64,000 nt of DNA, from the NCBI GenBank assembly GCA_965645245.1, contig OZ287074.1, forward strand, positions 2,294,001 through 2,358,000. Direction: 5' to 3'. Position 1 is the first letter of the stretch; each line of letters starts with the position of its first letter. Below the pieces are notes generated by a model. It did no database searches. It saw only the letters and a list, made by a program, of their open reading frames with translations, and had not been told where the DNA came from. The position numbers and the translations under genes are program-made. Source of the stretch: Massalongia carnosa (Eukaryota). This document shows, in pieces, positions 708 to 54,289 of this stretch.

Positions 708-3700
708 TTAAGACTCCAATGATAAACTCTCCATCTGCCACCCATTGAGAAGCTCAAGCGAAGACTCTGTATCAGGATGTTGAGGACCCAATTTGTGTCT
801 TCGTAGCTGAAAACATTCCTTTAGCAGTGAGAGAGCCTCATCATTGCGGCCTTGAAACTTCCACGTGAATGCAAGGTTGCTCATGCTAGTCAGCGTGTCT
901 GGATGCTCCACCCCTAGCACCCTCTTTCTCGTCGTCATCACTTGCATCTGCAGCTCTTCGGCCTCCGTCCATCGTCCTTGATTCCTGTACGTCAACGCAA
1001 GATTGTTCATGCTAGTCTGCGTGGAAGGATGCTCCGCCCCTAGCACCCTCGCACCCGTCTCCATCACTTGCACCTGCAGCTCTTCGGCCTCCGTCCATCG
1101 TCCTTGATTCGTGTACGTCGACGCAAGATTGTTCATGCTAATCAGCGTGGAAGGATACTCCGTCCCTAGCACCCTCGCACTCGTCTCCATCACTAGCACC
1201 TGCAGCTCTTCGGCCCCCGTCCATCGTCCTTGATTCCAATATGTCAACGCAAGATTGGCCATGTTAGTCAGCGTGTCTGGATGCTCCGCTCCTAGCACCC
1301 TCGCACTCGTCTCCATCACTTGCACCTGCAGCTCTTCGGCCTCCGTCCATCGTCCTTGATTCCTGTACGTCAACGCAAGATTGTTCATGCTAGTCTGCGT
1401 GGAAGGATGCTCCGCCCCTAGCACCCTCGCACTCGTCTCCATCACTTGCACCTGCAGCTCTTCGGCCTCCGTCCATCGTCCTTGATTCCTGTACGTCGAC
1501 GCAAGATTGTTCATGCTAATCAGCGTGGAAGGATACTCCGCCCCTAGCACCCTCGCACTCGTCTCCATCACTTGCACCTGCAGCTCTTCGGCCTCCGTCC
1601 ATCGTCCTTGATTCCAATACGTCAACGCAAGATTGGCCATGCTAGTCAGCGTGTCTGGATGCTCCGCCCCTAGCATCCTCTTTCTCGTCGTCATCACTTG
1701 CACCTTCAACTCTTCGGCCTCTGTCCATCGTCCTTGATTCCAATACGTCGACGCAAGATTGGCCATGCTAGTCAGCGTGGAAGGATGCTCCGCCCCTAGC
1801 ACCCTCGCACTCGTCTCCATCACATGCACCTGCAGCTCTTCGGCCTCCGTCCATCGTCCTTGATTCGTGTACGTCGACGCAAGATTGGCCGTCCTAGTCA
1901 GCGTGGAAGGATGCTCCGCCCCTAGCACCCTCGCACTCGTCTCCATCACTTGCACCTCCAGCTTTTCGGCCTCCGTCCATCGTCCTTGATTCCTGTACGT
2001 CGACGCAAGATTGGTCATGCTAGTCAGCGTGGAAGGATGCTCCGCCCCTAGCACCCTCTTTCTCGTCTCCATCACTTGCACCTCCAGCTCTTCGGCCTCC
2101 GTCCATCGTCCTTGATTCGAATACGTCGACGCAAGATTGGCCATGCTAGTCAGCCTGGAAGGATGCTCCGCCCCTAGCACCCTCTTTCTCGTCGTCATCA
2201 CTTGCACCTGCAGCTCTTCGGCCTCCGTCCATCGCCCTTGATTCCAATACGTCGACGCAAGATTGGCCATGCTAGTCAGCGTGGAAGGATGCTCCGCCCC
2301 TAGCACCCTCGCACTCGTCTCCATCACATGCACCTGCAGCTCTTCGGCCTCCGTCCATCGTCCTTGATTCGTGTACGTCGACGCAAGATTGGCCATGCTA
2401 GTTAGCGTGACTGGATGCTCCGCCCCTAGCACCCTCTTTCTCGTCGTCATCACTTGCACCTCCAGCTCTTCGGCCTTCGTCCATCGTCCTTGATTCCTGT
2501 ACGTCGACGCAAGATTGGCCATGCTAGTCAGCGTGGAAGGATGCTCCGCCCCTAGCACCCTCGCACTCGTCTCCAGCACTTGCACCTGTAGCTCTTCGGC
2601 CTCCGTCCATCGTCCTTGATTCCAATATGTCAACGCAAGATTGGCCATGCTAGTCAGCGTGGAAGGATGCTCCGCCCCTAGCACCCTCGCACTCATCTTC
2701 ATCACTTGCACCTGCAGCTCTTCGGCCTCCGTCCATCGTCCTTGATTCGTGTACGTCGACGCAAGATTGGCCATGCTAGTCAGCGTGTCTGGATGCTCCG
2801 CCCCTAAAACCCTCGCACTCGTCTCCATCACTTGCACCTGCAGCTCTTCGGCCTCCGTCCATCGTCCTTGATTAGAATACGTTAACGCAAGATTGGCCAT
2901 GCTAGTCAGCGTGGAAGGATGCTCCGCCCCTAGCACCCTCTTTCTCGTCTCCATCACTTGCACCTGCAGCTCTTCGGCCTCTGTCCATCGTCCTTGATTC
3001 CAATGCGTCAACGCAAGATTGGCCATCCTAGTCAGCGTGGAAGGATGCTCCGCCCCTAGCACCCTCGCACTCATCTCCATCACTTGCACCTCCAGCTTTT
3101 CGGCCTTCGTCCATCGTCCTTGATTCCTGTACGTCGACGCAAGATTGGCCATGCTAGTGAGCGTGGAAGGATGCTCCGCCCCTAGCACCCTCGCACTCGT
3201 CTCCATCACTTGCACCTCCAGCTTTTCGGCCTCCGTCCATCGTCCTTGATTCCTGTACGTCGACGCAAGATTGGCCATGCTAGTCAGCGTGGAAGGATGC
3301 TCCGCCCCTAGCACCCTCTTTCTCGTCTCCATCACTTGCACCTGCAGCTCTTCGGCCTCCGTCCATCGTCCTTGATTCCTGTACGTCGACGCAAGATTGT
3401 TCATGCTAGTCAGCGTAGAAGGATGCTCCGCCCCTAGCACCCTCGCACTCGTCGTCATCACTTGCACCTCCAGCTCTTCGGCCTTCGTCCATCGTCCTTG
3501 TTCCTTGTATGCCAAGGCTAGCATAGCCATACTATTCAATGTCTCTTCATCCTCTAGACCAAGCACTTTTTGCCTGGTTCTTGTTGCTTTTAGGGCCATT
3601 GTCGCTGCTTCAGCGTAACTCCCTTTCGCCCACGCATACCATGCAGCGTGATATAGTATCAAGGCCCAATCTTGTAATGAGCTTGCGACAGCTGGCTCCT

Positions 3701-5326
3701 GCGCTACTGCCGACTTTGCGTGAGGAAAAAGCGCTTGACACTTTGTCCAATTCTCGTAATCTCCCGTCGGAAGTACTGTACTAAGATTCTTGATGTATTG
3801 CTGCTTCCATCTTTCGAGCTGATTGGATGCTTCTAGCCACTTTCTGATCGCTAGCTGCACTAGCCCGTGCATCTCGAAGGTGGTTTCATTCATGCTGATG
3901 GTGATGAACGAGAAGTTTCTCAAGACAAGTATGTCGGCTTCAAACTCGTCGACACTGGAATCGGATACGGTATCCTTATCGCTATCGTCTTCGTGGTCAT
4001 CATCTTCGTCATTTCCAGCATTTTCTCCCGTATTTTCATTTCCTGCCTCGTTTTGTGTCTTGAGTAAAGCCTCAGGAATTCCCTGTCGATCGAAAAAGCT
4101 CATAAGCGACAGCAGATTAGCTGCCGAAGGCTTGATCTGATGAATATTATCAAACGATATTTGCCAGGTTATAATGATTGAATTTTTAGCCTCCAGGTCC
4201 CTGCGAAGATGTCCCGCTTCGTGATTCAACAGACTGGTCTTTCTTTTATCATTTTTATAGAACTCTTTTATGTACTGTCGAACAGAATATCTTGGTACTC
4301 TTTGTCGAATGTATGCGGCCGCTTGAACGATGGCAAGCGGCATGAATTCGAGTGCTGCTGCTAGCTCAGCAGTATCATCTCTGTCCCTCTGTTCTCCCAG
4401 CTTCTTTTCAAGGAGCGCTAGCGCATGTGTATCGTCCATCGGCTCAACCGCTATTATGTCGCTTTCTTCTGCTAGCCGCAATGCCACGCTTTTAGTCCGG
4501 GAGGTGATGAGAATCGAGCCGTTTCGACTCTGAGGTAGATATGCTAACAGTGATTGCGTGAGCCCGCTTCTAATGCCGCCATCCTGCGCCTTCTGGCCTG
4601 TAGCATGAGTTTCGAAAAGCACAGTAGCTTCGTCGGCATTGTCGAGGACCAGAGCCCACTTTCCGTTCTTCTCGTCGCGTAACCACTTGTCAACTAGCCG
4701 GAATATGTCCGCCTTTGGGTCCTCCCTGCCACGAATCTTGACTTGCTCTGCAACATCCCGATAACCTTGCTCGATACGGGCTGCATTACTAGCGTGTATC
4801 CAGAACACCCACGTCGTCGGCAACTGCTCTCTGATTCGATAGCAGTACTCGATGGCAAGCTGCGACTTTCTTTGCGAAAGTAAGCTATTAGAACTAGTCT
4901 GAGGCCCTTTGGCTTACCCAACGCCGCCTAAGCCGACAAGCGCTACCCTTGATGCTGGCGCCGAGCACTTTTCGTGGATCTGATCAAGTAGTGTTCCGCG
5001 ATCGACGAAATCAGGGTCGCGGCGGAAAGGAACAGCAGATGATGAGCTTGGTGGGGTATCGGGTCTTTCTACAAACGCAGAATGCTATCAGCCTCGGCTC
5101 ACAGGACGCTATATCATTGCGAATGGCGACTTGCCTGGACATTGAACAATATTGTTTGTCTGAGAGCCTAATCAGGATTTAGCATAAGATCAATATCGAT
5201 GTGAACAGGACGCAAACCAATCACTTTCGCATAGCCTGAGACGTCACCGATCACAGCGCCTTGGTTGCCAGAAATCGTGCCAAAATCCTTCGCGCCTGTA
5301 GAGACTGCTGGCGTGTTACCGGCCAT
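708..5326 (-). CDS. Fungal NLR (STAND) protein: short N-terminal putative amyloid motif, NB-ARC domain, 21 highly conserved 42-aa TPR repeats
   Basis: Manual splicing gives exons 5326-5218, 5167-5135, 5068-4918 and 4869-708; intron 2 is GC-AG. Spliced start: MAGNTPAVSTGAKDFGTISGNQGAVIGDVSGYAKVIGSQTNNIVQCPERPDTPP. Walker A is GLGGVGKS, Walker B is LVLDNAD, with ITSR and PLAI motifs, followed by LGAEHPSTLTSMANLASTYxNQGRW repeats. No internal stops seen. Confidence 0.9.
870..3520 (-). repeat. 126-bp tandem repeat array encoding 21 TPR units with high internal conservation
   Basis: QGRWT recurs 21 times at 42-aa spacing; the nucleotide units are near-identical. Confidence 0.95.
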
Positions 5327-5663
5327 TGCTGCGTCGGAAGATTGTAGACATTAGAGCTCAGGGATGTATTGAATAAGACTGAAACCCTATCTTTACCGTC
5401 CTCGGGACCGCACCTAGGCTCGGTCAGAAACTCGACGCCCAAGACTTTCCAAAAGCACGGTTCATCTATATAAATACAGGCACGGACTCGCCGATGGAAG
5501 GCCGCCATCATGCGGGCACGGGATAGATGACTGGCTGATAGAGCCAAGGCTATGCACGTGCTCAAGCGCCTGGTCTGCGGAGTACAATTATCTCGCATCA
5601 GTTATAGTGCTAAGTTTGAAGTACAAGGGTACGACTCCTCTGTGTTGCGATGACAACGCCAGC
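5327..5663. promoter_or_regulatory. Putative bidirectional promoter between the NLR and the SesB-like gene
   Basis: 337-bp head-to-head intergenic region with a TATA-like CTATATAAATA at ~5466-5476. Confidence 0.45.
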
Positions 5664-6924
5664 ATGGCCGAACCGTACGGATTAGGCGATCCCCTCTTTG
5701 ATTCTCCAGACGCGAATATAGAGTACGCACCAGATGTCTCGTCCGGGTTGCTTGGTACTGACCATACAGCATTGTCTTCGTCCACGGGCTCCGCGGTGAC
5801 AGAGTGAAAACCTGGACATGGGAGGGTCGCGATAGATCGCTGTTGTGGCCGCAAGATCTCTTACCTCAAGCCTGCCCAACAACTCGCATCCTTTCTTTTG
5901 GGTACAACGCGGACTTTGCTCACTTCTATCCGTTTGTTGGGCCGAAATTCATCCCGGAGCATTTAGCTATTGATGATCACGCAACTGCAATGTTCCAGAG
6001 CCTAATCGGTCTTCTCGAGAAAACGAAAACTGTAGGAATTGGCGCACCCCTTGTCTTTCCACCGGAAATACGCTAATATGATGTCTATGTCCAGGCTGAA
6101 CGTCCGATTATTTTCGTCTCGCACAGTCTAGGGGGTCTCGTTTGCGCCAATGCGTTGTCAAGGCACAATGGTACCGACATGGCTAGCACTAACCTCTTGG
6201 AGAGAACGATTGGAGTCGTCTTCCTTGGGACGCCCTTTGAAGGATCGTCAAAAGCAAAATGGGGAAGCAGGGCTCTACAGATACTGGGCTGGATAAGCAC
6301 CACGCATAAGCAGGATATAAAGGATCTTGAAGAGCGTTCGGCAAAGCTCATCAGCGTTAACGAGGCCTTTCAGAAATTCCTGAAAGCACGGGATCGTTCA
6401 GAATCAAGAGAGTTTGTGGAAGTAGCTTGTTTCTTTGAACAGTATGCTATGTATAAGGGAGGGACGAAGATGGGATTATCGTTCCCAAGGAATCGGCTTG
6501 CCTGCCTGGTATCGATCCACAGTCGATCCAGGCGAACCATGTTGATATGTGCAAGTTTGAGGATGAAGACCGAGAGGGATACAAGAGAATTTCACAAAAG
6601 TTGGTTCAATGGATATCGGATCTTGATAGTCGATCCAAGGGGTCTGGAGAGGATCGCCAGGTCTGACATCTCTTTCGCGCGCTTGAAATCAGCTGAAACC
6701 CAACAGAAACATTCGGTTCGTATGGGCGATATTAACTTTAGGGACAAAATCGATAACAATCGAGGTGTGATTATGGGTCATGCAAATAGTACGGCCACAG
6801 AAGGGGTTAAGATAACTGGGAGTAGTATCACTGTAAGGATTACCTATCCTTTCGATAGCGATGTACAAGCTGACAGAACACAAAGAATACTTATCATGCC
6901 ATTAACCCAAAAGGGTCTGTGTAG
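5664..6924 (+). pseudogene. SesB-like alpha/beta-hydrolase (lipase fold) with C-terminal putative amyloid motif; one frameshift
   Basis: Exons 5664-5722, 5770-6031, 6095-6660, 6707-6832 and 6886-6924. Motifs: DIVFVHGLRG, WPQDLLP, RILSFGY, nucleophile elbow SHSLGG, FLGTPF, CFFE and IVPKESACL...NHVDMCKF. The last block is out of frame by one base at ~6476 (real lesion or sequencing error). Confidence 0.8.
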
Positions 6925-7522
6925 ACCGAGGGATAGGCAATGGCGGAACTACTAGTCAACATTGCGGAGTCATTCCAGGACATTATTCAAGAACATGAAA
7001 TAATCAATTGACTTTTTGACGTCTTTCAAAACAATGTTTTTTTGCGCAGTCATCAGCTTCGGGTGAAGGTTGACTCCTTGTGAGACGTGAAGAGTGCGTA
7101 TGGCGATAGTAGCAGACTTCAAATATGCCGCAGCTAGAGGGTGCCTCTTAGAAGAGAATGCTTATCCAGCTTATGTCCAATCTCTGAATCCTTCCCTTAC
7201 TTCCGTAAGCACTTCCGAACAAAATCCTAACAGGATCTTGAATCATTATTGAATGAATAAGCTTCTTACTTCAAGGAGCTACGTAGATGCAATGACGGGG
7301 ATTTGCAAAGACGTGTACAATCAGTGGTAACGCCTGTCGAGTACGCTGAAATTGAAATGCGATTGAGCATCATAATCGACGACAAAGCCAAAGATGAGAC
7401 GAACAACTACAATACATCAAGTCCTGACAACTATTCCTATCATCATCATTATGACAGGTCGGTATGTTGACCGTATTGAGGTTCTGCCTTAAGATTCCAA
7501 AGCGTTTGAGCAAGGACTGAGG

Positions 7523-7849
7523 CTAGCGGGAAAAAAGCGCGCGATAGTGTTCATAGACGAAGCTGCCATTTCGGACATGTCTGAAAAGCGTAGATAACTC
7601 AGAAGCTAGATCTCCCTTTCCAGTTTTTGAATGAAGAGTAAGGGCTACGTCTGAACCCTGCAAAGCGTACAGAAGCCTTGACGTTGCCTTTTGAAGTCCT
7701 TGGTCGGAGCCAACAGCTCCATCGTAAGAGATCACACCTGGCTTATAAGACTGCTCCGCCTTCCGAAGTGCATCTTGTAGATGATCTAGGGAGTGATCCA
7801 AATGATGCTCCAGGATGATGGTGCGATCTTCTTGCGAAAGGTTGACCAT
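7523..7849 (-). pseudogene. Isolated N-terminal fragment resembling FunK1-type (fungal-type) protein kinases
   Basis: MVNLSQEDRTII..LDHSLDHLQDALRKAEQSY...YEHYRAL resembles FunK1 N-termini as recalled; no kinase domain follows. Confidence 0.4.
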
Positions 7850-8255
7850 CTCGACACAGGTAGCGCCAGCCCGAGTCGAATCGTGAATCTGCTGTCTCAC
7901 TGCAAGACTCTAGCAGAAACTGGCCAGAAGAGGTCTCATTCAATTCGTGTTAGTCTCATCGCAAAATAGATGGCACAGTTTTGCAATATCCCAAGAGGTG
8001 GTTTGCCTTGAAGGTAAAAGTACTGGCTGTGCGAATGTGGGGGCCGGAAAACAGAAAGCGCGTTAGACTTTTCCGAGTGACTGGTGGAACCAGCCGAGGC
8101 TTACTTTTGCCAAGACAGTCAGTCAGTACGGTGGTGCGGAAGATCTGGTTTAACCACGAGGCATGTCGAATGAAAAGAAGAGAAAGAAGAATATAATGAT
8201 GCTGGGTTGACATAAGAGAGGGTTGCAGAATAACTGGTAAAAAGTTAGGATGGTA

Positions 8256-10826
8256 ATCGTCGGCTCGCTTACCTCCGGGATCCGACTTGAAAAAATGTCG
8301 ACTGCATTTTAGTCGGGGAAAGCGGTTGCATCCCGGAAAGCGGTTGCATCCTCCCAAATTCAAATTTCTTCATCTTTTTGATCATTGACCAACAACCACA
8401 TTGATTAAAAATCAGCCGATACCGTACATAGCTTGAAAATCATTTCTCCGACCCAACTGATTATCAATTCAAATCCTTTCCTTTCGAATCAATCCCCCGA
8501 ACCAATCTCCCATTTCGAATCATGGATAACGACGCCTCCCTTGTCTCCACTCTCAACCCCATGGAAAGATTGAAAAAGGCGAAGGAATTTCTGACAAATC
8601 ATCCCAAAGAAAGTAAAACGACTGCAGCTAGAATCTACAATATCAACGTCAAAACTTTGACGTCTTCCATTCGTCGACCAGAAGGGAGGAAAATTGGAGG
8701 ACAAAATCAGATACTGAGGGAGCATGAGGCAAGGTCAATTACTGGCTTTATTAAGTCCTTATTGATTCATGGAATTCTTCCTACACATCAGATGGTTTTC
8801 AAGGCTATTGTAAGTCTGAAAAAGGCCTATAACCCCCTCGAGGTAGGCCCGTCAAGAAGATGGTTTCGGAGCTGGTGGAAATGTAACAAACTTCATAAAA
8901 TAAAGACAAAACCACTAGCAATGATTCGTTATAAAGCTGCCCAAGAATCAGATGTGATGGAATGGTTTGAAAGGTATAGAGAGGTGTTGAAAGAGTTGAA
9001 AATTCGAAAAAGTCGGAACATTTTGAACTTTGATGAAGCTGGTTTTCGGGTTGGATGCATGAGGGGTCAGGAAATCATTGTTCCTGAGGAAATCAAACAA
9101 TTCTACGCCGTCAGCCCGAAAAATCGCAGATCTGCGACAGTTATTGAGACTATCAATGCTGCCGGCGACTATCCCCCCCCTCCAATGATCATCGTACAGG
9201 GTCATGACATCATGGCCACATGGTTTTCGGAAGGTGTGCCCGAGGGCACGTATGTCGTGCCCTCGAACAGTGGTTTTACATCTGATAAGATAGCAATTGA
9301 ATATTTGAAGCATCTTATCAAACATACAAATGCAGGACCTGATGCGGAATGGCAATTATTGCTGATGGATAATCATGGCAGTCATACAACCCCTGAGTTT
9401 TCACTTTTGGCCAATGAGAATCGCATTCGACCCTTTCCCTTTATACCACATTTAACACATTGCATGCAACCATTGGATGTGGGCGTATTTCAGCCTTATA
9501 AGCATTGGCATTGCAAAGCTATTGAGGAAGTCGTTGCGTCGTCATTTGTCGAGTATTCTCTGTCTCAATTTATACAGGACTTGACCAAAATCAGAAATCA
9601 TACATTCAAGACTTCTACGATTCGGCATGCATTTGAAAAGTCGGGAATGTGGCCGATTGATCCAAAGGCATGCATTCGTGAGCTGAAAAATTTCAATCCC
9701 AATGATCCCAATGATTCATTAAATAGTCTGAATACGAATAATGAGCCCTCATTACCTCTACCCCCACCTCGTCAAATCCAACCGACAAAAGTAGCTGACA
9801 TTGAGTATGGTTTAAATCAATGGGGACCGAAAATCAGAAAATCCATGCAATGGAGTGATCCCGCTCGGGCTGAGGAATGGGACTCATTTGTAGACAATAC
9901 AAATGAAGTTGTTTCGAATACGATTATCGATGGCATGGAGCTGGAAATGCATCGAGAATCAAGAAGAAGTCAGTTAAATAACAGACGAATGTCTCGTAAA
10001 CGTCTGAGACCAGAAACCGGGAGATTGGGAATCACAACGGAAGATGCAAAGCAGGCTATAGCCATCAGACTACAACAGGATCAAGAGGCTGAGGAGAAAC
10101 GAGCGAATAATAGCTTCATGAAGCTATGGCGAATAGAAAGAGACGAAATGCATGTCAAGGGATTGGCTGCTCGAAAAACAGAAAGAGATCGAGTCAAACA
10201 GCTGAAAGAAATGCAGAAAATACTCGGTCCCATTCCAATTGAGATGTATGAGAAGATTCCTGACCCCGAGGCATTATGGAAGGCCACGAATGAGGTATGG
10301 ATAGCTGAGGAAGCGAAGAAGGAAATTAGAAAGAATCCGCGTGACAATGTCAATGAGGAAGATGTCACATTTATCGTAGATAGCACTAGTCATGGAGATA
10401 ATTCAATCCTTCCAGATCTTCTAGAAGGAGAAACATGGCTACGAGATGAGTTCGTATCTTTCGATTTGGAAGAATCATTGAAAGAATTCGATTTAGAAGC
10501 ATCTTTTCAACCAGGAGATGCGAATAATTGGTAGAATGCGGGGTATGCGGGGTATGCGGAGTAAGCGGAGAATCACGAGGGTCAGGGGGTCAGGGGGGTC
10601 AAGGGAAATGATTTTGACGACGGTGATGATGACGGCGATGATTTTCAAGCTATGTACGGTAGCGACTGATTTTTAATCAATGTGGTTGTTGGTCAATGAT
10701 CAAAAAGATGAAGAAATTTGAATTTGAGGGGATGCAACCGCTTTCCGGGATGCAACCGCTTTCCCCGACTAAAATGCGAGTCGACATTTTTTCAAGTCGG
10801 ATCCCGGAGGTAAGCGAGCCGACGAT
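8256..10826 (+). mobile_element. Complete Fot1/pogo-like DNA transposon with long (~190 bp) TIRs and TA target duplication
   Basis: TIRs at 8256-~8443 and ~10638-10826 are near-perfect inverted copies. TA at 8254-8255 and 10827-10828. Central transposase ORF. Confidence 0.93.
8522..10534 (+). CDS. Fot1/pogo-family DDE transposase, 670 aa, uninterrupted
   Basis: N-terminal HTH region; catalytic motifs NFDEAGF, LLMDNHGSH and MQPLDVGVF. Confidence 0.92.
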   Translation: MDNDASLVSTLNPMERLKKAKEFLTNHPKESKTTAARIYNINVKTLTSSIRRPEGRKIGGQNQILREHEARSITGFIKSLLIHGILPTHQMVFKAIVSLKKAYNPLEVGPSRRWFRSWWKCNKLHKIKTKPLAMIRYKAAQESDVMEWFERYREVLKELKIRKSRNILNFDEAGFRVGCMRGQEIIVPEEIKQFYAVSPKNRRSATVIETINAAGDYPPPPMIIVQGHDIMATWFSEGVPEGTYVVPSNSGFTSDKIAIEYLKHLIKHTNAGPDAEWQLLLMDNHGSHTTPEFSLLANENRIRPFPFIPHLTHCMQPLDVGVFQPYKHWHCKAIEEVVASSFVEYSLSQFIQDLTKIRNHTFKTSTIRHAFEKSGMWPIDPKACIRELKNFNPNDPNDSLNSLNTNNEPSLPLPPPRQIQPTKVADIEYGLNQWGPKIRKSMQWSDPARAEEWDSFVDNTNEVVSNTIIDGMELEMHRESRRSQLNNRRMSRKRLRPETGRLGITTEDAKQAIAIRLQQDQEAEEKRANNSFMKLWRIERDEMHVKGLAARKTERDRVKQLKEMQKILGPIPIEMYEKIPDPEALWKATNEVWIAEEAKKEIRKNPRDNVNEEDVTFIVDSTSHGDNSILPDLLEGETWLRDEFVSFDLEESLKEFDLEASFQPGDANNW

Positions 10827-27775: not shown

Positions 27776-30017
27776 ATGTGCGTTTTGCGGGCTAAGAATT
27801 CAACTCGCGAATCGTCGAATATCGCTCGCGAACACATCGAAATAGACGATCCTATAGCGTCGATAACTCGCGAGCAGGTGACGACCGTGATTTTAAGTAA
27901 ATTCGGCTTTTATCCAAAGAATGAGCAAGTTGACGCTATCATGACTTTAGCACAAGATCAAAAGGATCTGATATTTATCGCCAAGACTGGATTTGGAAAG
28001 AGTATTATCTTTCAAGCTATGCCATTAATGTTCTCTTGTCTTAAGATCGCTTTAATTATCATGCCTCTCAAGACCTTAGAAGCTCAACAGTGCAAGAAAT
28101 TGAGCGTCATCGAGGGATGCAAGCCTTTCGTGTTATACGGTGATAGTAATAATTCTTCCAATTTAAAGTTAATTCGTGAAAACAATTATACGCATGGTGT
28201 GTATTCAAATTATGATTGAGATAAATACAAAAACTTACTCGTTAATATGAATAGTTTTTACTAGCCCAGAGATAGCGACGTCAAAGCTGTTTAATCAGGA
28301 GGTTCTGAGGCATCCAAGTTTCTTCTTGAATTTATGTCTTTTAGCTCTTGATGAGATGCATCTTGTATCCGAATGGCGAGATTTCCGGCCCGAATACTTC
28401 AATCTCGGTGTGCTTCGTACACGATTACCAGATGGTATTCCTTTTCTGGGTGCGTCTGCAACGCTGGATCCAAGAACCCTAGAGAGCGTTAAAGATCGCT
28501 GTGGCTTTGATAACGAAAGTACTGTTATTCAAACAGCGCTTGATCGTCCAGAGATATACATACAGACAAGCAGTCTACAGCGGCCTATGAACAGCATGAT
28601 CGATCTTCAACATCTTTTACCAACACGGGCTGAGAGTCCTTTTGATATTCCGAAAACGATTATCTTCATGGATTCAATTTCATCTATCAAAAAGGCGTGT
28701 GCGCTAATGAAAGTATGGATGAATCAATTGTCCTATCCAATTGAGGCTGCTAGTTGGGTCGCGCCTTTCTTTTCCGACATGGCCACCCAAGACAAAGAAA
28801 GGATTGCGGCTCGCTTCGAAATGCCCTCGAATCAATGTAAATTTCCTCGAATCCTGATCGCAACGGATGCATACGGGCTTGGTATTGATAATCCAGACGT
28901 TATGAGAGTTACGCAATGGCTGCTACCCTCGTCAATGGCGAAGCTATACCAACGTTTAGGTCGTGCTTTGCGTTGCGGTCGAGGACAGGCGCATTTTACT
29001 CTTTTGCATCCTTCTTGGTGCATGGGTCCAAGAAGCGGATCAAAAATGGACGAACAGGACGGATATGACGCGGGAATCGAGATTGAATCCAAGGCCAGTA
29101 AACGCCGCATCAATCAAAAGGATGCTGATCGGCGACGAGATATGCCACCGGGTCTTTGGGAGATAATAAATGTGCCTTCAGATGGTTGCGTTCGAGGTAT
29201 TGGCTTGAATTTCTTCAATGATAAAGTGTATCCAACGTCGGCCTATGTTAAGCCGCAACCTTGCTGTTCAATTTGCGATCCAAGTTTTCAGACATCAACA
29301 GCCGCCAATGAGATGTTAAATAGAACGGCCGAGCGTGACTCGTCTAGGCGGCCTTGGTTCACCGTTAAACTTCGAGAATGGAGGGAGGCCAAGGCGCAGG
29401 AAAAGTTCCCAAATTCACATATGCGATACTTCCCATCATTGATAATGCCCGATGAGGTACTGAATTCTTTGACCACTTGGGCGGATCAGATTGTGGACGA
29501 GCCCACCATGCGGCGATGGATTGGTAACACATGGACTGGTATTAGGCCCTACGGCGCCGAGCTTTTAGAAATTTTAAAGCGGGGTCAAGCAATGAGATTA
29601 GACGAGGGAGACATGTTCGAGGAATGGAAACGACACAACGACATAAAGAGAAAACGATTACCCAGCCTAACATGCAACTCCGCCAGTATTGAATTTGAGG
29701 AACGGAGGAAAAACTGGATGATCAAACAAGGATATATGTCGAGAAAGGTTTTTAAAAAGCGAAATGCGGTCAAGAAGAAAGTCTCGAAGGAAAGCGAGAG
29801 TACGGAGCCATTGGGCGAGAATCCTGCGCCTAATCACAATATCTCCGATGCGGCGCTCGTTGTTGACAATGTTGATGCTCTTAAATCATCGATGAAGGCA
29901 TCAAAGACCAAAAAAGCGCCTCGAGATCCTATGGAAGCGTTGTCGCTGAATATACCCATGGCCCTTCCTCCGACACGATCTAGACAAGAAAGAAAGTGCC
30001 CCGTCCGCTACCTCTGA
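27776..30017 (+). CDS. RecQ-like SF2 DNA helicase (transposon-encoded), one intron at ~28198-28254
   Basis: Motif I AKTGFGKS, II DEMH, III SAT, V ATDAYGLGIDNPDV, VI QRLGRALR, and Zn ligands C..CCSIC. Splicing restores THVFTSPE in frame. Confidence 0.88.
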
Positions 30018-30076
30018 CTCTGTAAAGCCGCGCGGCGCGGATTTACATGACTAGGCTATCTCGTGGTATCGATGAT

Positions 30077-32755
30077 TTAATCAAAAAACATACCGCCGGA
30101 TATCTCGAGACGGGCCATTGAAATGACAGGGCTGTCGGGGACCTGCTTTGTTTCATTGACAAAATCGGGCTCGGCTTCATACTTACCCTCAAGGTCGTCT
30201 GTTGAAATTTCTTTTGAAATTTCTTCGGAAAGATACTGCTGATTGTATTTTAATACATTTTCTCCAAGTTTCTTCAATCCCTCAACATAAAGATTAGCTG
30301 TTGGATTAGTTGAAAATCGATCATAGCTTCTTTTACAGAGTGATTTATGCGCTAGTGCCGTAGCCATGCCCCACACATCCTCTGCGGCCGATTTTGCTGG
30401 ATGCCTTGAAGAGTTGACTCTTCCAAAGTAAAACTCAACGATTTCTTTGAGCTTCATAAGATATGGACCGTTGAGTGCCCAGTTCTCGAGCAAGGTGTCA
30501 CTATACTTTGAAAAATAAGATCGCTCGTGCTGGAACGTCTTGAGGTTATTGTTTAGTATCTCTAAAAGCCGATCAGTCTCAAAACTCGACTCTTCGTCAC
30601 CGCGTAAATTGATAAGACTATTCATTAAAATACTTTCCTGTAGCCTTATGGTCGCTGCGGAAGAATCAATCGCATGAAGGGTGTATAGAAGAGCTTGCGC
30701 ATATTTCGGGGTGCCAGCTACGCTTGCCTGAAAGATCACCGTTGCGTGGCGCAATGCGTGACGAAGTAGTCCAATATCCGCATATTTGATTGCGTATCGA
30801 AGTGTTAGATACGATTCAACGTGATCACAGAAGTTCTGATGATTCTGAAATTGTTGATCAAGCGTTGGAGGAAGCATATCTATTGACGTTGAGGGTAATT
30901 CCGCGTGAAGTTTGCGAGATATCCTGCCCAACATATTCATCCAGGTGCCATCCTGCCCGCAAGTCTGCGCTGTGAGCCACGAAATAGTTGCTTCGATTCG
31001 CTGCGGAGCATATCCATCCTTTCGTAAAAACCTAATCCACGTCCCAACGATTCTAGCTTGATAGCTCTGAATGATCAGATCCTCTAAGGCCTGGAAATCG
31101 TTCGGCTGCACGACACGAGCGCGGCCCCACCGATCGGCGGCATATTGAAGAGTCGAAGGATCAACCGGCTGGGCCTCTCCCCAATGTATTTTATGAATAA
31201 GCTGCAGCATGTTAAAGCGAAGATGCCATAACCCTAATCCCGGTAAAATCCAGTCGAACCGATCGAAAGATTGCTCCGATATCCCACGACGTAATTCCTT
31301 GACAGATTGCATTCTCGACCATGTCTTGAGGTCACCATAGATAAGCCGAATGACGCTCGCAAACGTCGAGTCATCCTCCTTGAACTTGAACTGTCGCACA
31401 AATATATCCTCCAATATTTGAATATTATTAGATGTTGTGCTCTCATCCTTCATGACTGGTTTGATAGGAATGTAATTGGTCTTGTATTTTTTCATCTTAT
31501 TCAGCACGGGCATTGCAGTCGACCAAGGAAGTTGAACGTCGCCGATCTCTGGGCCATAAAGCGCTCGAATCGCTGACTCTAGATGATGAAGACGAATCTA
31601 GGTACGCGGTGCATTAGCGATTGAGCGCGGTATATACACCTCGTCCTGTATTGAACTCACCTGCATCTCGAGATCACCAGTCTCCAGCTTTCGCGCAATT
31701 CTTTCAGCTGATAAAAGATGCGTGGCGGGGCGCCACATATCCTGCCTCAAAGCGCCGGCATCGAATCCTTGCCCCTGGAAAATTAGAGCGGTAGTGATTG
31801 ATCTGACGTCTCTATTATCCCCCGTGCGCTCTCCTCGTTTACCTTCTGCGAAGTCAAAGTTATCGTATGTCAAGATCATGTTTGAGCCTTGTCCTAGCAT
31901 CTGAACCTTTCGTTCGGCCTCCTTAATCAAGGACAACATGCGCCGCTGCAGGGTAGTATATGACATCGTCAGGTCAAAATGACAGAGTGTATCTAGAACT
32001 CGCCGCCTCGCCCCACCTTGATAAATATAAAGGCCTAAGACGGACTGAATATTGGTCGCCTTATTTGGTCGCAATTTGTGACAAAGCATTGCCAATATAA
32101 CGGTGTGCCGGCCGCTGGGAGAATCCAACGTCACATCGAGAGGTTCCTGCGGGCGAGCCTCGCGACAAACACTATCAATTAGCTCAAGCCATCGTGGCGC
32201 CAACTGCTTGGCGGCAGATGCAGCAAGTTTAATAGCCTCCAAGGTCCCAAACTCGACTGTCGCAGAGGGCGGCTGGAAAGGGCCAAAGGCTGCGTGATCT
32301 GCCAAAGCTTTGATTTCTTCACGAAGCACATCCGCGGCCCAAACCCATCCTCTCTCGCGAAGGATAGTGGATATTCTACCAGGCCCAATGAGGCTTGAAA
32401 AGTCTTCTTGCCGCACAATATCGACATAGACAAAATCGAAGAGCTGGCCTTGCGCCTTTCGCATACTATGACGGGCTCGATTCTTACAAAGTGTTGATAA
32501 AAAATCTTTTACCGACCAATTTAGAGAGCTCAGAAATTTAAGCACCTCAACCAGCTTGTCGTAATCTGATATGCGCCGGCGGTGGCGTTTCGCGCCTCCA
32601 TTTTTTTCAGGTAAGGCAGGAGGGGAGGAGGAAGAGGGTGAGCTATCATTACTGCCTGACGGCGATGGGTGGGGCCGCTTGAGCGCACCGGCGGGAGTCA
32701 AGGGACTTGTCCGTAGGTCGGTAAGTGGCGAGGAGGGGCCCCCGACAAGAGCCAT
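30077..32755 (-). CDS. Putative Academ-type transposase, intron 31661-31598; the true start may be further upstream
   Basis: A GTGAGT..GCTAAT..TAG intron joins the 385-aa and 478-aa ORFs in frame. Candidate catalytic motifs YDNFD, YGDLKT, GLWHLRFN and DRLLEILN. Confidence 0.75.
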
Positions 32756-34400
32756 GGCTTTCGTCAGATAGCTTCAATCTAGATAAATCATACAATACCA
32801 TTGATTGGCCGTCGTTATTCATATCATCATGATCTTTGTAACTCAATGTAATCGCGCTACATGAAAATAATCAGTTCATCAACCTCAAAATTGAGCGAAA
32901 GCGAACAATTTATCACTTAATCGACTTTCACATCGCTTTTCTTAGCCTGACAGTAGTTATAACACATGATTATCGAGTCATCCATCTTGAGAGGTGCGTT
33001 TTTGGTATAAAATACAGTCTCTGGTAAACTAATACGACCCTAATCATTGTATTAAATCCATAAAAGGAATGGTTGCACTGCTAAAATTTTTATTACGCGG
33101 ATCTGGCCGTAATTTTGAGTTTTGCGCTCAGACGTGCTATCGCACTGATGTTAGTCAGCAGCGACGCTAACCCGAAGGGGCTTAGCGAAAATAGGCTAAC
33201 CCGGAGGGGCTTAGCCGGCTCATTGAGCCACGCACGTCTGAGGTACTGAGGCAACTAGGGCAGTGCAATCCAACAGTATACTATCCCTAGACCTAGCTTT
33301 CTAATAGTAACTCTTGTATATCTCCGTATATCTTCCTATCTGGACCTTGTCCGTGACAATGATATATTAGAAAAATATCAATTTCATTTATGTTTCGATC
33401 GTAGTCATGATTGCAGATGAATTGACAAAACTTCTCACGCTGTGGAGAGGTGGAGTGGACCTCTACTAGATGTCTAGATGACAGGTATGATGACTGTAAT
33501 CGTCGGCCTCGCTTAGCTGCCTCCATACGAGGTGTAACACCTCTAGTCGGGGAAAGCGGTCTGCGTAGGCAAGCGATCTGCGTAGTTTCAATTTCAGGAT
33601 TTGTCCAAATTCACCCATTTTACAACCTATTATGCAGCTTTTTGCACCACTTCTCGACCGCAACCTAAGACCGTTAACTTTTATTATTCATACCATAGAT
33701 AGATATTAACTGCACATCCTAACTACTCATTGATTAACCGGGATATTCACCTTTATTCAATCGCGACCGCATCAGTTGCATGCCTCCTATTTCGTCAATC
33801 ACTCTCTCCCTATTTCATCAACCGCTCCCCACCTCAATCATGAATAGCAGCAGCGTCATGAAAAAGAACCTTATTAAAACCAGTGATTCTATTTCAACGC
33901 GCGTGCAAAATGCTAAGCAGTTTTTATTAGAAACCCCCAAGGAGAGCATCGTTTGCGCTGCTCGAATCTTCAACCTCGCCGAGACCACTCTTTACAGTTC
34001 GATTGAACGTGAAAAGACGCCGCCGAAGAAATTGGAGGGCAGAACAAAATACTGGAGGAGCATCAGGTCAGAGCCATTCACGAATTCATTCGATCTCTGG
34101 TTGCGTATGGCATTCAACCTACTCATAAAGGTGTTTTTGCTGCTATTAAGACTCTGAAACGTGCTCAAGATGCCGAATTCAATAGTCCAAGTCCTCGGTG
34201 GTTTAGGCAATGGTGGAAAGACAATGGCCTGCACAAGATAAAGACCAAGCCCGCTGGCAGTTGTTCGATATACTGAGGCTCAGGAGTCAGATGTAAGATC
34301 ATGGTTTAATCGATATCAGCGGGTTCTTGCAGAATTGGGGATAACTCGTTCACAAGATATCTAGAACTTTGATGAAGAAGGATTTCGAGTTGGGTGTATG

Positions 34401-41246: not shown

Positions 41247-44200
41247 GGCCGAAACGATGGAAATCTATGAGGGACACAAAATCCCTCTCTATATTGCAGT
41301 ATAATGTCAGAAATGACAGAGTGAGTACTATGATACCTCTCTTAGCAGACACAAAAACCCAGGACTATGATATTATTGCAATACAGGAACCGTGGCGCAA
41401 TCCATCCGCCCCCACATCGCTTAGTTCTCATCAAAGCGGCTTTCACCTCCTATACTGCCCAGGAGGTGACGCCAGAGTGTGCTTTTATGTCAACGACCTA
41501 ATAGACACTGACAGCTGGGAGGTGGAATTCACCTCGGCCGACATGTGCACTTTGAAAATAAAGACCTACACCGAAGGCGTTATGGAAACAATTCACATTC
41601 CATAATGTGTATAACCCCTCTCCCGCTTCCTATTCATCCACTGACAGTCCCACGACCTTACCGGCGGCTCGGAGCATGCTTACCGCCGATGCGCATCACA
41701 TACTACTTGGAGATTTCAACCTGCATCATCCCTTTTGGAATGGTCCCTCAAGACCCACACAACACGCTGCTGCTGATCAATTACTAGAAGTAATCGATGA
41801 TCATAATCTTTCGTTGACACTGCCGAAAGGCACCGTAACATGGGAAGCAAGAAACACGTCTAGCACGATAGAATTGGTTTTCATGTCAGAATACCTAGTC
41901 GAAAGACTCGAACACTGCATGTCCAGACCAGAATTGAATCAATCGTCCGATCACGTGCCGATATCAACCCGCATCCTACTCGGAAGCGAGCCGCAACCGA
42001 AAATCAAACGCAGAGCATGGAAACTTCTAAACCTGGAAAAATTAAGTGAGGCCGAACGACACGCCCCTATACCGGAGTCTCCCCGTACCACTGCCGAGAT
42101 TGATGCGTACACGGAATCGATTCAAAAATTTCTACAAAATGTCATCAACGAAGCAGTTCCATGGGCAAAATCTAGCGAATATGCTAAGCCATTCTGGACA
42201 GAAGAATGCAGCATTGCCACCAAAGCCACACGGAAACTACGCCGCATATGGTCCAGCACGTTAGACCTAACGGACTGGTCTAACTATATGAAATCCAATG
42301 ATAAAAAACAGAAAATCATTCAAAAGGCAAAGAGAACAAACTTTCGTCAAGAAATCAATAAGGCCACCGAAACGCCTCAGGGACTATGGCGGCTATCGAA
42401 ATGGGCAAAAGACAAAAGTCATCAATCTAGAGAAATATCTAAAATGCCGATGCTAAAATTCAATGACCAAGTAGCAGACACGTTTGACCAAAAAGCCGAA
42501 ATGCTGAAAGGTGTCTTCTTTCCCGCACCACCACCGGCCGACCTAAGCGACATAGAAGGATCCTTCTATCCTACATCGCCGCACTGCCCAATAATCATCA
42601 CCAAGTCAGAAGTATCGACGGCCCTGAGTCGGCTCGAGTCCGATAAGACACCGGGCCCAGACGGCATATCTAACAGAATACTCAAAGCATGCAGCGAAAT
42701 ACTTGTCGAACTACTAACACCTCTGTTTCAGGCGTGCGTCACACACTCGTACCACCCGCGGGCCTTTAAAATGGCCAACACAATAGCGCTGAAAAAAATA
42801 GGCAAAGGAGACTATATCACGCCGAAAGCCTACCGACCAATTGCACTGCTCAACACGCTCAGTAAAGTTATGGAATCCATAATTGGATCGAAAATAACCT
42901 GTCTGGCGGAAAAACACCGGCTCCTACCCGATACACAGATGGGAGCAAGGAAGGGCAGATCCACAGAGTCAGCACTGGAACTGCTAACTGAACAGGTTCA
43001 CACGATTTGGGGACAGGGAAAAGACAAAGTTGCCACACTGCTAAGCATGGACGTCGCCGGCGCGTTCGATACGGTATCACATCAACGACTAACGCACAAC
43101 CTACGGAAAAGAAAAATTCCAAAATGGATCACCGACTGGTTAAACAGCTTTCTGAGCGATCGAAGCACCACTTTAGCAATAAATCGAAAAGTCACTGGGC
43201 GGTTTGCGGTAAGAACGGGTATCCCGCAGGGCTCTCCCCTGTCATCCATTCTTTACCTATTTTACAATGCAGATCTATTGGAAATATGTGATCGACCAGG
43301 CAAAAACACAAGTGCCATAGGATTCGTAGACGACGCAAACATTTTTGCATATGGAAAAAGCACCGAGGAAAACTGCAAAACTCTAGAGGCAATACACAGA
43401 CAATGTGAGACGTGGGCTTCCCGGCACGGGTCCATATTCGCTCCGACGAAGTACGAACTCATACACTTGTCCAGAATCCCAAAAGATTCAACATGACTGC
43501 AACCATCAATATTGCTAGCACCGAAATTGAACCTAAAACGGACATCAGAGTATTGGGCCTACAAATCGACACCAAATTGAAATGGGGACCGCACGTTCGC
43601 AAAACGCAAGAGAAAATGGTCAAACAATCCATGGCATTGACAAAATTTTCTACATAAACCTGGGGTGCCACCTTCGCCAAGGCAAGGCAGGTTTACAGTG
43701 CCGTGGTGCGTCCGGCCATGCCATATGGGTCAACCGTATGGCACATGCCTAAAGAAGTCAAAAAGTCAAAAACGTCAACGAGCAAGCTCTCCGTCATGCA
43801 AAACAATTGCCTTCGCACCATAGCCGGTGCCTTTAAAGCCACTCCCATCTTAGTACTAGAAGCAGAGACATTCATAGCGCCCATAGACACGCATCTCGAC
43901 ATGCTACAAGCACAGGCAAGGTACCGGCTCCGAGCCGGAGGCCAATTGAAGATCATCTCCTCCGCATGCAACAAAATAGCTGACAAACTTCGAGGCAAAG
44001 CAGGTCGCAAACGACTTCAAAAGCCCACCCCGGGAGAGCTGAAACACATCTGGGCCAAAAGCCTACTGATCGACTCAAAAATAGTTCAACCACCAAAGGC
44101 ACACCAACCATGGTTCGAAGTCTACCCGGCGTGGCACCGCGAAGCTACCGTTGCGGCAACGGCCCGACACAAACAGATGCAAACAATCAAAGCACGACAA

Positions 44201-53813: not shown

Positions 53814-54289
53814 CTAATCCTCATCTTCATCTTCGGCATAATCGTATTCTAGACTATGCGTCTCATCTTCCTCAATTGTATCTCTCACTCCAGATCCTAC
53901 CTCCCCGCCCCCGTCCACCTCCCCATCCTCCATCCCCTTATCCACCCGAGTGACCGCCTGAGTGACCGCCTGAGTGGCCATTTGCGATGTCGGTAAATAG
54001 CGTTGACGCCGAGGGGGAGACGGGGGCATTTGCTGAGATATCTGTCGAGACATTTGTCGAGACATTAGCAAAGGCATTTGCCGAGACATTTCTCTTCCAA
54101 ATTTACTGACGTCTCGCGCCAGTTGAATCCCGATTCCCGGAGGAATTCCTAGTTCCTGCCAGAACGTCTGATGCTCGATGCCTTTCAAGGATTGAACGGT
54201 CATCAGATCGTACCCACCTTCCATCAATCGATCGCAGGCGTTGGTGAGCACTCCTTTCAAATGAACTGACGCAGGCTCCTCCAAATGCA
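53814..54289 (-). pseudogene. C-terminal fragment of a protein with an LGIPxG helical motif, similar to the 59294-60634 product
   Basis: YDLMTVQSL...WQELGIPPGIGIQLARDVSKF versus WSLEDLRDM...AIQLGIPDGWARAFKTDLRTF. Confidence 0.45.

Follow-up and report, generated by a model that had tools for sequence, protein, structure and literature searches.

A head-to-head NLR and SesB-like hydrolase gene pair of Massalongia carnosa with a shared terminal motif: a candidate amyloid signalling module with a PP-like extended motif

This study concerns two divergent genes at the left end of a 64,000-nucleotide stretch of the Massalongia carnosa genome (assembly GCA_965645245.1, contig OZ287074.1, positions 2,294,001 to 2,358,000 of the forward strand; hereafter the window, in whose own numbering all coordinates are given). 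One encodes a nucleotide-binding oligomerisation domain-like receptor (NLR) and the other, which starts 337 bp away on the opposite strand, a SesB-like alpha/beta hydrolase, and homologous motifs stand at the former's N-terminus and the latter's C-terminus. On balance we favour reading the locus as a signalling module made up of NLR and effector, belonging to the same kind as NWD2/HET-S, PNT1/SBP and HET-eN/SesB and with a motif family that is apparently undescribed, the two-gene module in this window being probably not working because its hydrolase copy is frameshifted. Fungal NLR/effector pairs that signal by amyloid templating are the best model of prion-like immune signalling and are related to the RHIM-based necroptosis signalling of animals. 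The portions of the literature considered here count about four to six families of such motifs in Ascomycota.

The NLR gene contains a long open frame (708..4913, minus strand), and its product has the order expected of a fungal NLR, with an NB-ARC-type P-loop NTPase followed by TPR repeats: the Walker A motif reads GLGGVGKS, Pfam models give weak though clear matches to NB-ARC (E-value, E, 4e-4 with exon 4 and 1.8e-3 with the N-terminal part of the deposited Lobaria immixta protein MMC22_008330, P0010) and DUF7779 (E 2e-7), and TPR_10 matches 23 stretches (E 0). Using region 1-330 of P0010 as query, 1874 relatives were found at E<=1e-10. The repeats are encoded by a tandem array (Table 1). 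High internal conservation of repeats is typical of the sensor domains of fungal NLRs, which diversify through repeat reshuffling, and the highly similar TPR repeats of this NLR are reshuffling-prone. A preliminary description of the locus, made from the sequence alone, had proposed that the NLR lacks an N-terminal effector domain, and indeed no Pfam domain was found ahead of NB-ARC; its place is taken by a motif of about 45 residues spread over two small exons.

Without removal of intron 1 the frame of this N-terminus would run into a stop at 5168-5170. Intron 2 (66 nt) has two possible in-frame placements, GC-AG (5134..5069), giving ..QCPERPDTPP, and GT-AG (5130..5065), giving ..QCPGKPDTPP, either of which leads to 1484 residues with a single, terminal stop. 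The peptide SQTNNIV, which the preliminary description had put before ERPDTPP, is present, but the residues QCP had been omitted and the GT-AG alternative changes the linker to GKPDTPP. The junctions agree with the model of the Lobaria immixta protein and with NLRs of Dothideomycetes, in which the counterpart of mini-exon 2 reads GSQTTNNHHYP or GTQVTNHNYSG. The N-terminus is 92-94% identical to that of P0010, which then reads ..VIASQTNNNFQYPGRPDTPP, and over exon 1 36 of 36 residues align at 94% identity. None of the contigs of four public runs (three studies) that were aligned to 4700..7000 joins across the NLR introns.

The hydrolase gene is interrupted by four introns, all GT-AG, of 47, 63, 46 and 53 nt, and its C-terminus runs in the order ...GEDRQ / KHSVRMGDINFRDKIDNNRGVIMGHANSTATEGVKITGSSIT / NTYHAINPKGSV. 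All four junctions match, residue for residue, a relative of 354 residues (P0008) whose frame lies entire on a 1325-nt contig and is therefore intron-free and most likely transcript-derived. In one contig of a run labelled lichen metagenome (X3), 5722 and 5771 are separated by no more than one T, so that intron 1 is precisely gone; having 26 letters on its shorter side, it weakly suggests either cDNA-like material or an intron-less paralogue. The alpha/beta hydrolase fold is indicated for the window's protein by a GxSxG nucleophile elbow (SHSLGG), by DUF676 (E 6e-4, exon 3) and by weak Pfam matches to Hydrolase_4 and Abhydrolase_6. An AlphaFold2 model of P0008 (34 aligned relatives) is confident over residues 1-289, with a predicted local distance difference test score (pLDDT) of about 90 or above over most of them, and its top Foldseek matches are carboxylesterases and lipases (E about 1e-7), thioesterases also being resembled. 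In the linker and motif tail pLDDT falls below 50 (residues 294-302 and 304-354); the motif-bearing tail is thus predicted to be disordered and to lie outside the folded effector domain, which is where amyloid signalling motifs are expected.

Read from the aligned sequences, each motif contains three h-x-h-G units, which are S-V-R-M-G-D, G-V-I-M-G-H and V-K-I-T-G-S on the effector and A-V-S-T-G-A, A-V-I-G-D and K-V-I-G-S on the NLR. The effector form can be written [SA]-h-x-h-G-x-h-x-[FY] ... N-x-G-V-h-h-G-[HN] ... G-h-x-h-x-G-S-x5-Y, and the NLR form is the same pattern consistently shortened by 4 residues. Further landmarks are an aromatic residue after unit one, an Asn before unit two and an aromatic residue near the end, with Pro and charged residues rare inside, a composition such as would be expected of beta-arch motifs. 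A second copy of either motif was sought in the 64 kb by tblastn and none was found (best other E 0.19).

The two peptides were located in the sequence as the preliminary description had placed them, the head-to-head layout was confirmed, and the claim that the motifs of adjoining genes are homologous is borne out by comparisons between the two protein families. In a MAFFT alignment, NLR N-termini and effector C-termini share one register along the entire motif. Comparison of NLR and effector profiles with hhalign gave P = 2.3e-5 over 27 columns, and P = 9.3e-6 over 29 columns (probability 83%) when repeated with the tool's own alignments. A hidden Markov model (HMM) built from six Dothideomycete NLR N-termini ranked family members in all of the top seven places among 153 hydrolase tails, the best five at E 2e-4 to 2e-3. 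At the level of sequence, the likeness of the two termini is real for the family and weak for the window pair alone.

The distribution of the motif was followed on both sides. On the effector side, P0008 served as query in a full HMMER scan covering 1.84 billion representatives, which returned 8718 matches at E<=0.001, and the tails of 153 hydrolases, i.e. the 150 best and three close relatives, were scored by eye: 19 of them carry the motif, concentrated among the closest relatives. Sources include Daldinia loculata, Xylaria bambusicola, Podospora fimiseda, Metarhizium majus (whose protein, P0058, is named 'SesB protein' by the source) and Scedosporium apiospermum, and further Zopfia rhizophila, Phyllosticta citricarpa, P. 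capitalensis, Paraphaeosphaeria sporulosa, Kalmusia, Alternaria alternata and Hymenoscyphus albidus. The effector motif is therefore kept in at least four classes of Pezizomycotina, namely Sordariomycetes, Dothideomycetes, Leotiomycetes and, counting the window, Lecanoromycetes. The NLR form, for example MANTVPTTVTGAKEFGAISDNRGVVLGDASGYTQITGTQVTNHNYSGRPETPP, is present in 5 of the 119 closest P0010 relatives listed (Dendryphion nanum, Lindgomyces ingoldianus twice, Neocucurbitaria cava and, in a shorter version, Patellaria atrata), as well as in P0010 of Lobaria immixta and a second Patellaria protein; it is kept in Dothideomycetes and Lobaria.

Other evidence was obtained from metagenome contigs of the Joint Genome Institute (JGI), which were scanned with a six-sequence hydrolase alignment; 223 stretches matched and 10 loci were confirmed, five of which (L001-L005, E 4e-20 to 9e-6) contain motif-tailed hydrolases. 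Three of these (L001, L003 and L004) are too short for neighbours to be seen, leaving as informative L005 and L002, whose hydrolase open reading frame (ORF) reads the same as that of L001. The layout of L005 is head-to-head, with an upstream ORF on the opposite strand that has a Met start and a short NLR-type form of the motif, ..GVHQGPVDFGGAQNYGGVFAGNINGYNSIIG. This is identical to the tail of the adjoining hydrolase, SIGVYQGNVDLRGAINHGGVFAGNVS, at 16 of 25 positions (64%), compared with 20-36% between loci; a likeness peculiar to the pair would be predicted if the partners in a signalling pair evolve in concert. In L002, two upstream minus-strand genes have motif-like N-termini, one recognised by HMM (E 0.02-0.03) and the other by eye. 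The partners in both loci run on into a helical region, followed in L002 by a long Pro-rich part with a conserved block of about 120 residues. No Pfam family was found in them, tblastn with the NB-ARC region was blank in both loci and no P-loop was seen, and the helical domain found in the L002 partner, when searched against the ESM Atlas, gave generic helical bundles only. These partners may be non-NLR triggers.

Four further loci contain other SesB-like hydrolases with other short tails (L006:3924-4934, plus strand; L007:4109-4219; L008:4119-4229; L009:4093-4239, plus strand), reading ..IKDAVIEGVVAAKIEAPQGGGTLEITG.., or ..TTFSGPNYGGVQKGHDVSRGG.. with a G-V-Q-x-G core. The Pfam motif models did not match the similar tails of two other hydrolases, P0083 and P0114. 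Tails within the SesB-like hydrolase family look more varied than the set of named motifs.

What the preliminary description missed is that the hydrolase gene of the window appears broken, so that its proposal of an amyloid two-gene module holds for the architecture and the motif homology and probably fails for the function of this copy. Exon 3 is 566 nt long and therefore out of frame: the protein tracks its relatives up to ..FFEQYAMYKGGTKMG, and the next conserved stretch, ..IIVPKESACLPGIDPQSIQANHVDMCKFEDEDREGYK.., lies in the other frame. The portion with the Ser nucleophile is in this way parted from the ..IVPKESA..ANHVDMCKF.. portion, and the frame is interrupted before the conserved His region (..ANHxxMCKF..). 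With this break the enzyme would lose its C-terminal third, and the motif would be disconnected once the transcript is spliced. An intron within exon 3 that would rescue the frame was sought by eye and rejected, the GT..AG candidates of 16-21 nt being too short and one of about 46 nt deleting the conserved ..FVEVACFFEQYAMYK.. strand.

We think it less likely than not that the missing T stems from faulty assembly of a T run and that the hydrolase of the window is intact and functional. The difference is one of homopolymer length (TT against TTT), and splice sites and conserved residues are kept in the rest of the gene. In the public contigs over 4700..7000, with counts given as depth units, a T is inserted behind 6475 in 14341 of 38011 (X1), 2664 of 5036 (X2), 286 of 658 (X3) and 71 of 138 (X5), i.e. 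at 38-53% of the summed depth in every run, and this extra T would restore the frame (..KMGFIVPKESA..). Against this, the form without the T is likewise found in all four runs, at about half of the depth, contig ends fall between 6454 and 6485 in the way that a true variant bubble would cause, and the best-matching runs may include the sample behind the assembly of the window, which makes their independence incomplete. The module is also multi-copy, since a close relative has on contigs of Mb size five hydrolase-tail ORFs that differ from one another, as well as several NLR ORFs, and the whole of 4700-7000 is covered by many variant contigs in the four runs; the in-frame form may therefore belong to paralogues. 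We thus hold it to be rather more probable that the window's copy is truly broken, which speaks against a working module at this locus, and the hydrolase is most likely a decaying paralogue of a multi-copy family next to an NLR that is intact.

A side effect of the frameshift, together with the 46-nt length of intron 3, is that the unspliced frame is open from exon 3 through intron 3 into the motif exon (6077-6952, plus strand; a stop-to-stop ORF of 292 aa). The identical wrong-frame ORF is called in a paralogue (P0003), and ORF tracks thus show the motif joined to out-of-frame sequence.

Table 1. Features of the NLR/hydrolase locus in the window, and of the partner genes in two metagenome loci
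Feature	Position	Strand	Description
Divergent intergenic region (shared promoter)	5327..5663	.	337 bp; several variant contigs of public runs cover the region
NLR gene, NB-ARC + TPR	708..5326	-	1484 aa when spliced; reading frame intact
NLR exon 1	5218..5326	-	ATG at 5326; MAGNTPAVSTGAKDFGTISGNQGAVIGDVSGYAKVI + G; first 36 residues of the motif
NLR intron 1	5168..5217	-	50 nt, GT..AG
NLR mini-exon 2	5135..5167	-	(G)SQTNNIVQCP, end of the motif; 3' limit 5135 (GC-AG) or 5131 (GT-AG)
NLR exon 3	4918..5068	-	(E)RPDTPP linker up to Walker A GLGGVG
Tandem array coding TPR_10 repeats	871..3505	-	126-bp unit, 20.9 copies, 91% matches
SesB-like alpha/beta hydrolase gene	5664..6924	+	five exons, ATG at 5664; frame broken in exon 3
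Hydrolase exons 1-3	5664-5722, 5770-6031, 6095-6660	+	
Hydrolase exon 4	6707..6832	+	KHSVRMGDINFRDKIDNNRGVIMGHANSTATEGVKITGSSIT; C-terminal motif, 42 aa
Hydrolase exon 5	6886..6924	+	NTYHAINPKGSV, then stop; conserved aromatic end of the motif
Frameshift site	6475..6476	+	one T absent: GGATTATC; relatives GGATTTATC or equivalent
L005 partner with N-terminal motif	L005:706-903	-	
N-termini of L002 partners	L002:8872-9222 and L002:5484-5675	-	downstream ORFs 8412-8888, 6493-8442, 5096-5566, 2561-5071

Both amyloid templating and enzyme activation are inferred here from the analogous systems of PMC3321046, PMC5485727 and PMC9815663: ligand-driven oligomerisation of the NLR would gather its N-terminal motifs into a cross-beta nucleus, the nucleus would template the same fold on the hydrolase tail, and the templated tail would cluster or activate the hydrolase, a putative lipase or esterase. 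A wider proposal, which we put forward tentatively as possible rather than probable, is that the motif constitutes a further amyloid motif family, a three-unit descendant of the PP/RHIM core about 45 aa long in which the Q has become aliphatic, found on SesB-like lipases in at least four classes of Pezizomycotina; its receptors would include NB-ARC/TPR NLRs and also, among certain Sordariomycete-like fungi, proteins other than NLRs, in which the N-terminal motif is followed by a helical bundle and then by a long disordered region.

A number of results weigh against reading the locus as such a module. The likeness of the window pair has a Smith-Waterman score of 37, which is equalled by 48 of 5000 shuffles and is weak on its own, and its identity (12 of 39 aligned positions) is no higher than that found across loci. 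In the reverse of the HMM test, a model of the effector tails did not separate motif-type from PP-type NLR N-termini: among 122, P0161 ranked first (E 0.004-0.006) and the window's NLR third or fourth, with P0162 at 12th-17th, P0173 at 21st-43rd and P0010 at 34th-37th, PP-type sequences being interleaved with them. In L002 and L005 the N-terminal motif belongs to a non-NLR protein, and for Zopfia and Paraphaeosphaeria the NLRs and hydrolases listed have accessions that, considered purely as numbers, are far apart. The amyloid or fibril reading itself rests on analogy; searches of the PDB with single peptides and with profiles gave no relevant match, including no solved amyloid chain at E<=10, and the motif exon gave no usable match as a query in the ESM Atlas.

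Some of these results, namely the weak pairwise likeness, the low-level scores that unrelated PP-type N-termini also receive from the effector HMM, the absence of a solved amyloid match and the dependence on analogy, would also be expected if the shared tail were an interaction or localisation peptide rather than an amyloid tag, or a G/N/S/T/V-rich look-alike that leaves the two genes unlinked. This explanation is nevertheless improbable in our view, as each side is conserved at its own terminus across fungal classes, the profile-profile comparison reaches P of about 1e-5, the top seven of 153 tails picked out by the NLR-derived HMM are family tails and the two motifs of L005 are 64% identical. 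The predicted disorder of the tail, outside the folded domain, and a context that is that of all fungal amyloid signalling motifs described in the portions of PMC9815663 considered here also speak against it.

We give similarly little credence to a second alternative, in which the motif is no family of its own and instead a divergent member of the PP (RHIM-like) family operating within PP signalosomes, though the kinship on which it draws is evident. The PP consensus, FxGx(x)NxGLQLxGxNxGxL (PMC3321046), has in common with the core of the window's NLR, F-x5-N-x-G-A-V-I-G-D-V-S-G, the skeleton F..N-x-G-h-X-h-G-x-x-x-G, and when the motif was compared by hhalign with a profile made from the N-termini of 63 PP-type NLRs, the cores fell into the same register (P was 1.6e-4 for the NLR form, a value inflated by the shared linker, 0.009 for the effector form and 0.003 for the two together). 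A G-x-Q-x-G sequence stands near the N-terminus in 63 of the 119 closest NLRs listed, the central Q is retained in the tail of P0058 (GGVQAG) and in the look-alike short tails of P0083 (GGIQTG) and L007 (GGVQKG), and two PP-tailed proteins (P0073 and P0155) belong to the same hydrolase family. In contrast, the models that Pfam has of the PP motif (PF17046, under the name Ses_B), of sigma (PF17106) and of HET-s (PF11558 and PF17108; PMC12261475) gave no match at E<=10 with the window exons, P0008 or the N-terminus of P0010, and none of 17 family or family-like tails matched at E<=1, in a scan in which PF17046 did match P0073 and P0155 out of 27 other hydrolases. A PP HMM of our own gave PP tails E 4e-8 and 2e-6, compared with E>=0.6 and at most 3.2 bits for family tails, and ranked motif-type NLRs 80-90 of 91. 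It is because this HMM finds PP tails, yet neither the family tails nor the motif-type NLRs, that we set the motif apart from PP. Its centre also differs, G-h-Q-h-G in PP being replaced by G-A-V-I-G (NLR) and G-V-I-M-G (effector) with V or I in place of Q, no pseudo-palindrome centred on Q is seen in the window motif, and its length of about 45 aa with three h-x-h-G units, two of them additional conserved units, exceeds the 17-23 aa of PP.

Judged by its sequence, the motif would thus form a distinct, longer family with a PP-like core. The scoring against amyloid-motif models that the preliminary description had called for was negative with the Pfam models, as was that with our PP HMM, which agrees with its opinion that the motif is unlike PP, sigma and HET-s, while the resemblance of the core to PP (hhalign P 0.009 to 1.6e-4) was not anticipated. 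Its suggestion of an undescribed family finds no contradiction in the text supplements of PMC9815663, but the motif is better called a PP-like extended variant.

The surroundings of the gene pair are rich in transposons. Just downstream of the hydrolase, at about 8260-10810, lies a pogo/Fot-like DNA transposon with a 700-aa frame, DDE_1 (8432-10531) and inverted terminal repeats at about 8280-8440 and 10640-10810; between it and the hydrolase an open frame of 128 aa (7523-7909, minus strand), without Pfam match, may be a gene fragment. The remainder of the window includes, in 28251-32773, 41562-43493, 47494-50733 and 61109-62671, a LINE-type reverse transcriptase (RT) with endonuclease, a copia-type RVT_2 with an SH3-like domain, a second RT fragment, a DUF6589 protein and a Helicase_C ORF. 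A second NLR-like fragment, the end of an NPHP3_N/NACHT-type NTPase domain (54248-55402, plus strand; E 1e-7), lies 50 kb from the first NLR, and the region may therefore be an NLR cluster. The richness in transposons fits a decaying paralogue in a fast-evolving cluster of this kind.

If the favoured reading is true, a PP-like core without its central Q would make it possible to test which residues of the RHIM/PP fold are needed, and related motifs coexisting on closely related NLRs would offer a natural case for the study of cross-seeding barriers; amyloid signalling would also reach lichen-forming fungi. Since current Pfam models miss the motif, such N-termini look unannotated in surveys relying on them, and small terminal exons hide such motifs from ORF-based annotation. 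The non-NLR partners found in metagenomes, if real, would widen the range of known trigger proteins, in which case lipase-effector amyloid templating would not be limited to NLR triggers. The finding of a Q-less, PP-like extended motif in lichens and many other ascomycetes is mainly relevant to specialists in amyloid signalling.

With regard to the published record, the survey in PMC9815663, in the portions considered here, distinguishes 16 classes of motif at N-termini and 22 motifs on the effector side; a few classes are left unassigned, and the others go to PP, sigma, HRAM, PUASM or a single additional PNP_UDP motif. The motif sets of this survey are reused in PMC12258605 and PMC12261475. 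NLR34, the sole unassigned class that is Ascomycota-wide, was considered and rejected as the identity of the motif; most of the 25 rows listed for it belong to NACHT proteins of Fusarium and to Tuber, while Lomentospora and Pyrrhoderma have one row each. In the first of three parts of the table of paired hits, hydrolase effectors are paired with PF07819_017 (Fusarium oxysporum, NLR positions about 36-89) and NANBNtm_023, and also with PF14479_004, PF17111_006, PF01048_013 and PF17107_005, identifiers that we infer to be of sigma and PP type. Twelve words of the motif and 12 accessions of family members are absent from the text supplements of that survey, profile and FASTA files, two archives, part of the main table and the logos lying outside the search, and nothing on NLR amyloid motifs of lichens was found in the literature searched. 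The family appears to be undescribed, though a description may exist elsewhere in print.

The known motifs that are recognised, like this one, by the pairing of an NLR N-terminus with the C-terminus of a neighbouring effector include PUASM, FxGxGxQxxGxGxF (PMC9815663), and GDQN, NxxxGxQYxxxGxGDQNxVSxxxxQxN (PMC12261475); by inspection the window motif does not fit either printed pattern, and their effectors differ, being PNP_UDP and SesA. With NWD2/HET-S the locus has in common a single N-terminal copy on the NLR that would template a C-terminal copy on a disordered effector tail, and the motif resembles HET-s/HRAM in its alternating hydrophobic and polar pattern, with Gly and Asn at the presumed arcs. 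However, the HRAM unit is 21 aa long and occurs in two copies on the effector, its defining positions being G19 and the hydrophobic ones 5, 8, 10, 16 and 18 (PMC4518210), whereas the window effector bears a single motif of about 45 aa in which, if G24 is set at position 19, N and D fall by inspection on positions 5 and 8. HRAM effectors are moreover HeLo or HeLo-like (motif NLR13) or PNP_UDP (HRAM3-like NLR12), as opposed to SesB-like hydrolases (PMC9815663). A HET-s/HRAM-like repeat was dropped as a candidate because these defining positions misfit and searches with the Pfam models (PF11558, PF17108) and PDB profile searches were blank.

Two of the known systems employ SesB-type effectors, and of all the motifs compared PP comes nearest to that of the window. 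Like the sigma modules (HET-eN / SesA / SesB of Nectria haematococca), the locus pairs such an effector with an NLR gene, and the sigma motif, which has about 40 aa and is said to consist of submotifs repeated three times (PMC5485727, PMC3321046), is similar in this respect. Sigma is, however, a G/N/Q-rich three-fold repetition of GxGxQFN / GGTQNINT units (PMC3321046; peptide in Table 2 of PMC8086366), in contrast to the aliphatic h-x-h-G units of the window motif, which have almost no Q, and neither a match to PF17106 nor sigma units were found in the latter. In the PP modules (PNT1 / HELLP / SBP of Chaetomium globosum) there is a HeLo-like third partner, of which none was seen in the window. 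As in those modules, an NB-ARC/TPR NLR with an N-terminal motif adjoins a SesB-like lipase with a C-terminal one, and the nearest NLR and hydrolase relatives of the window's genes carry PP; both genes, as far as their sequences tell, are kin to the PP-type modules.

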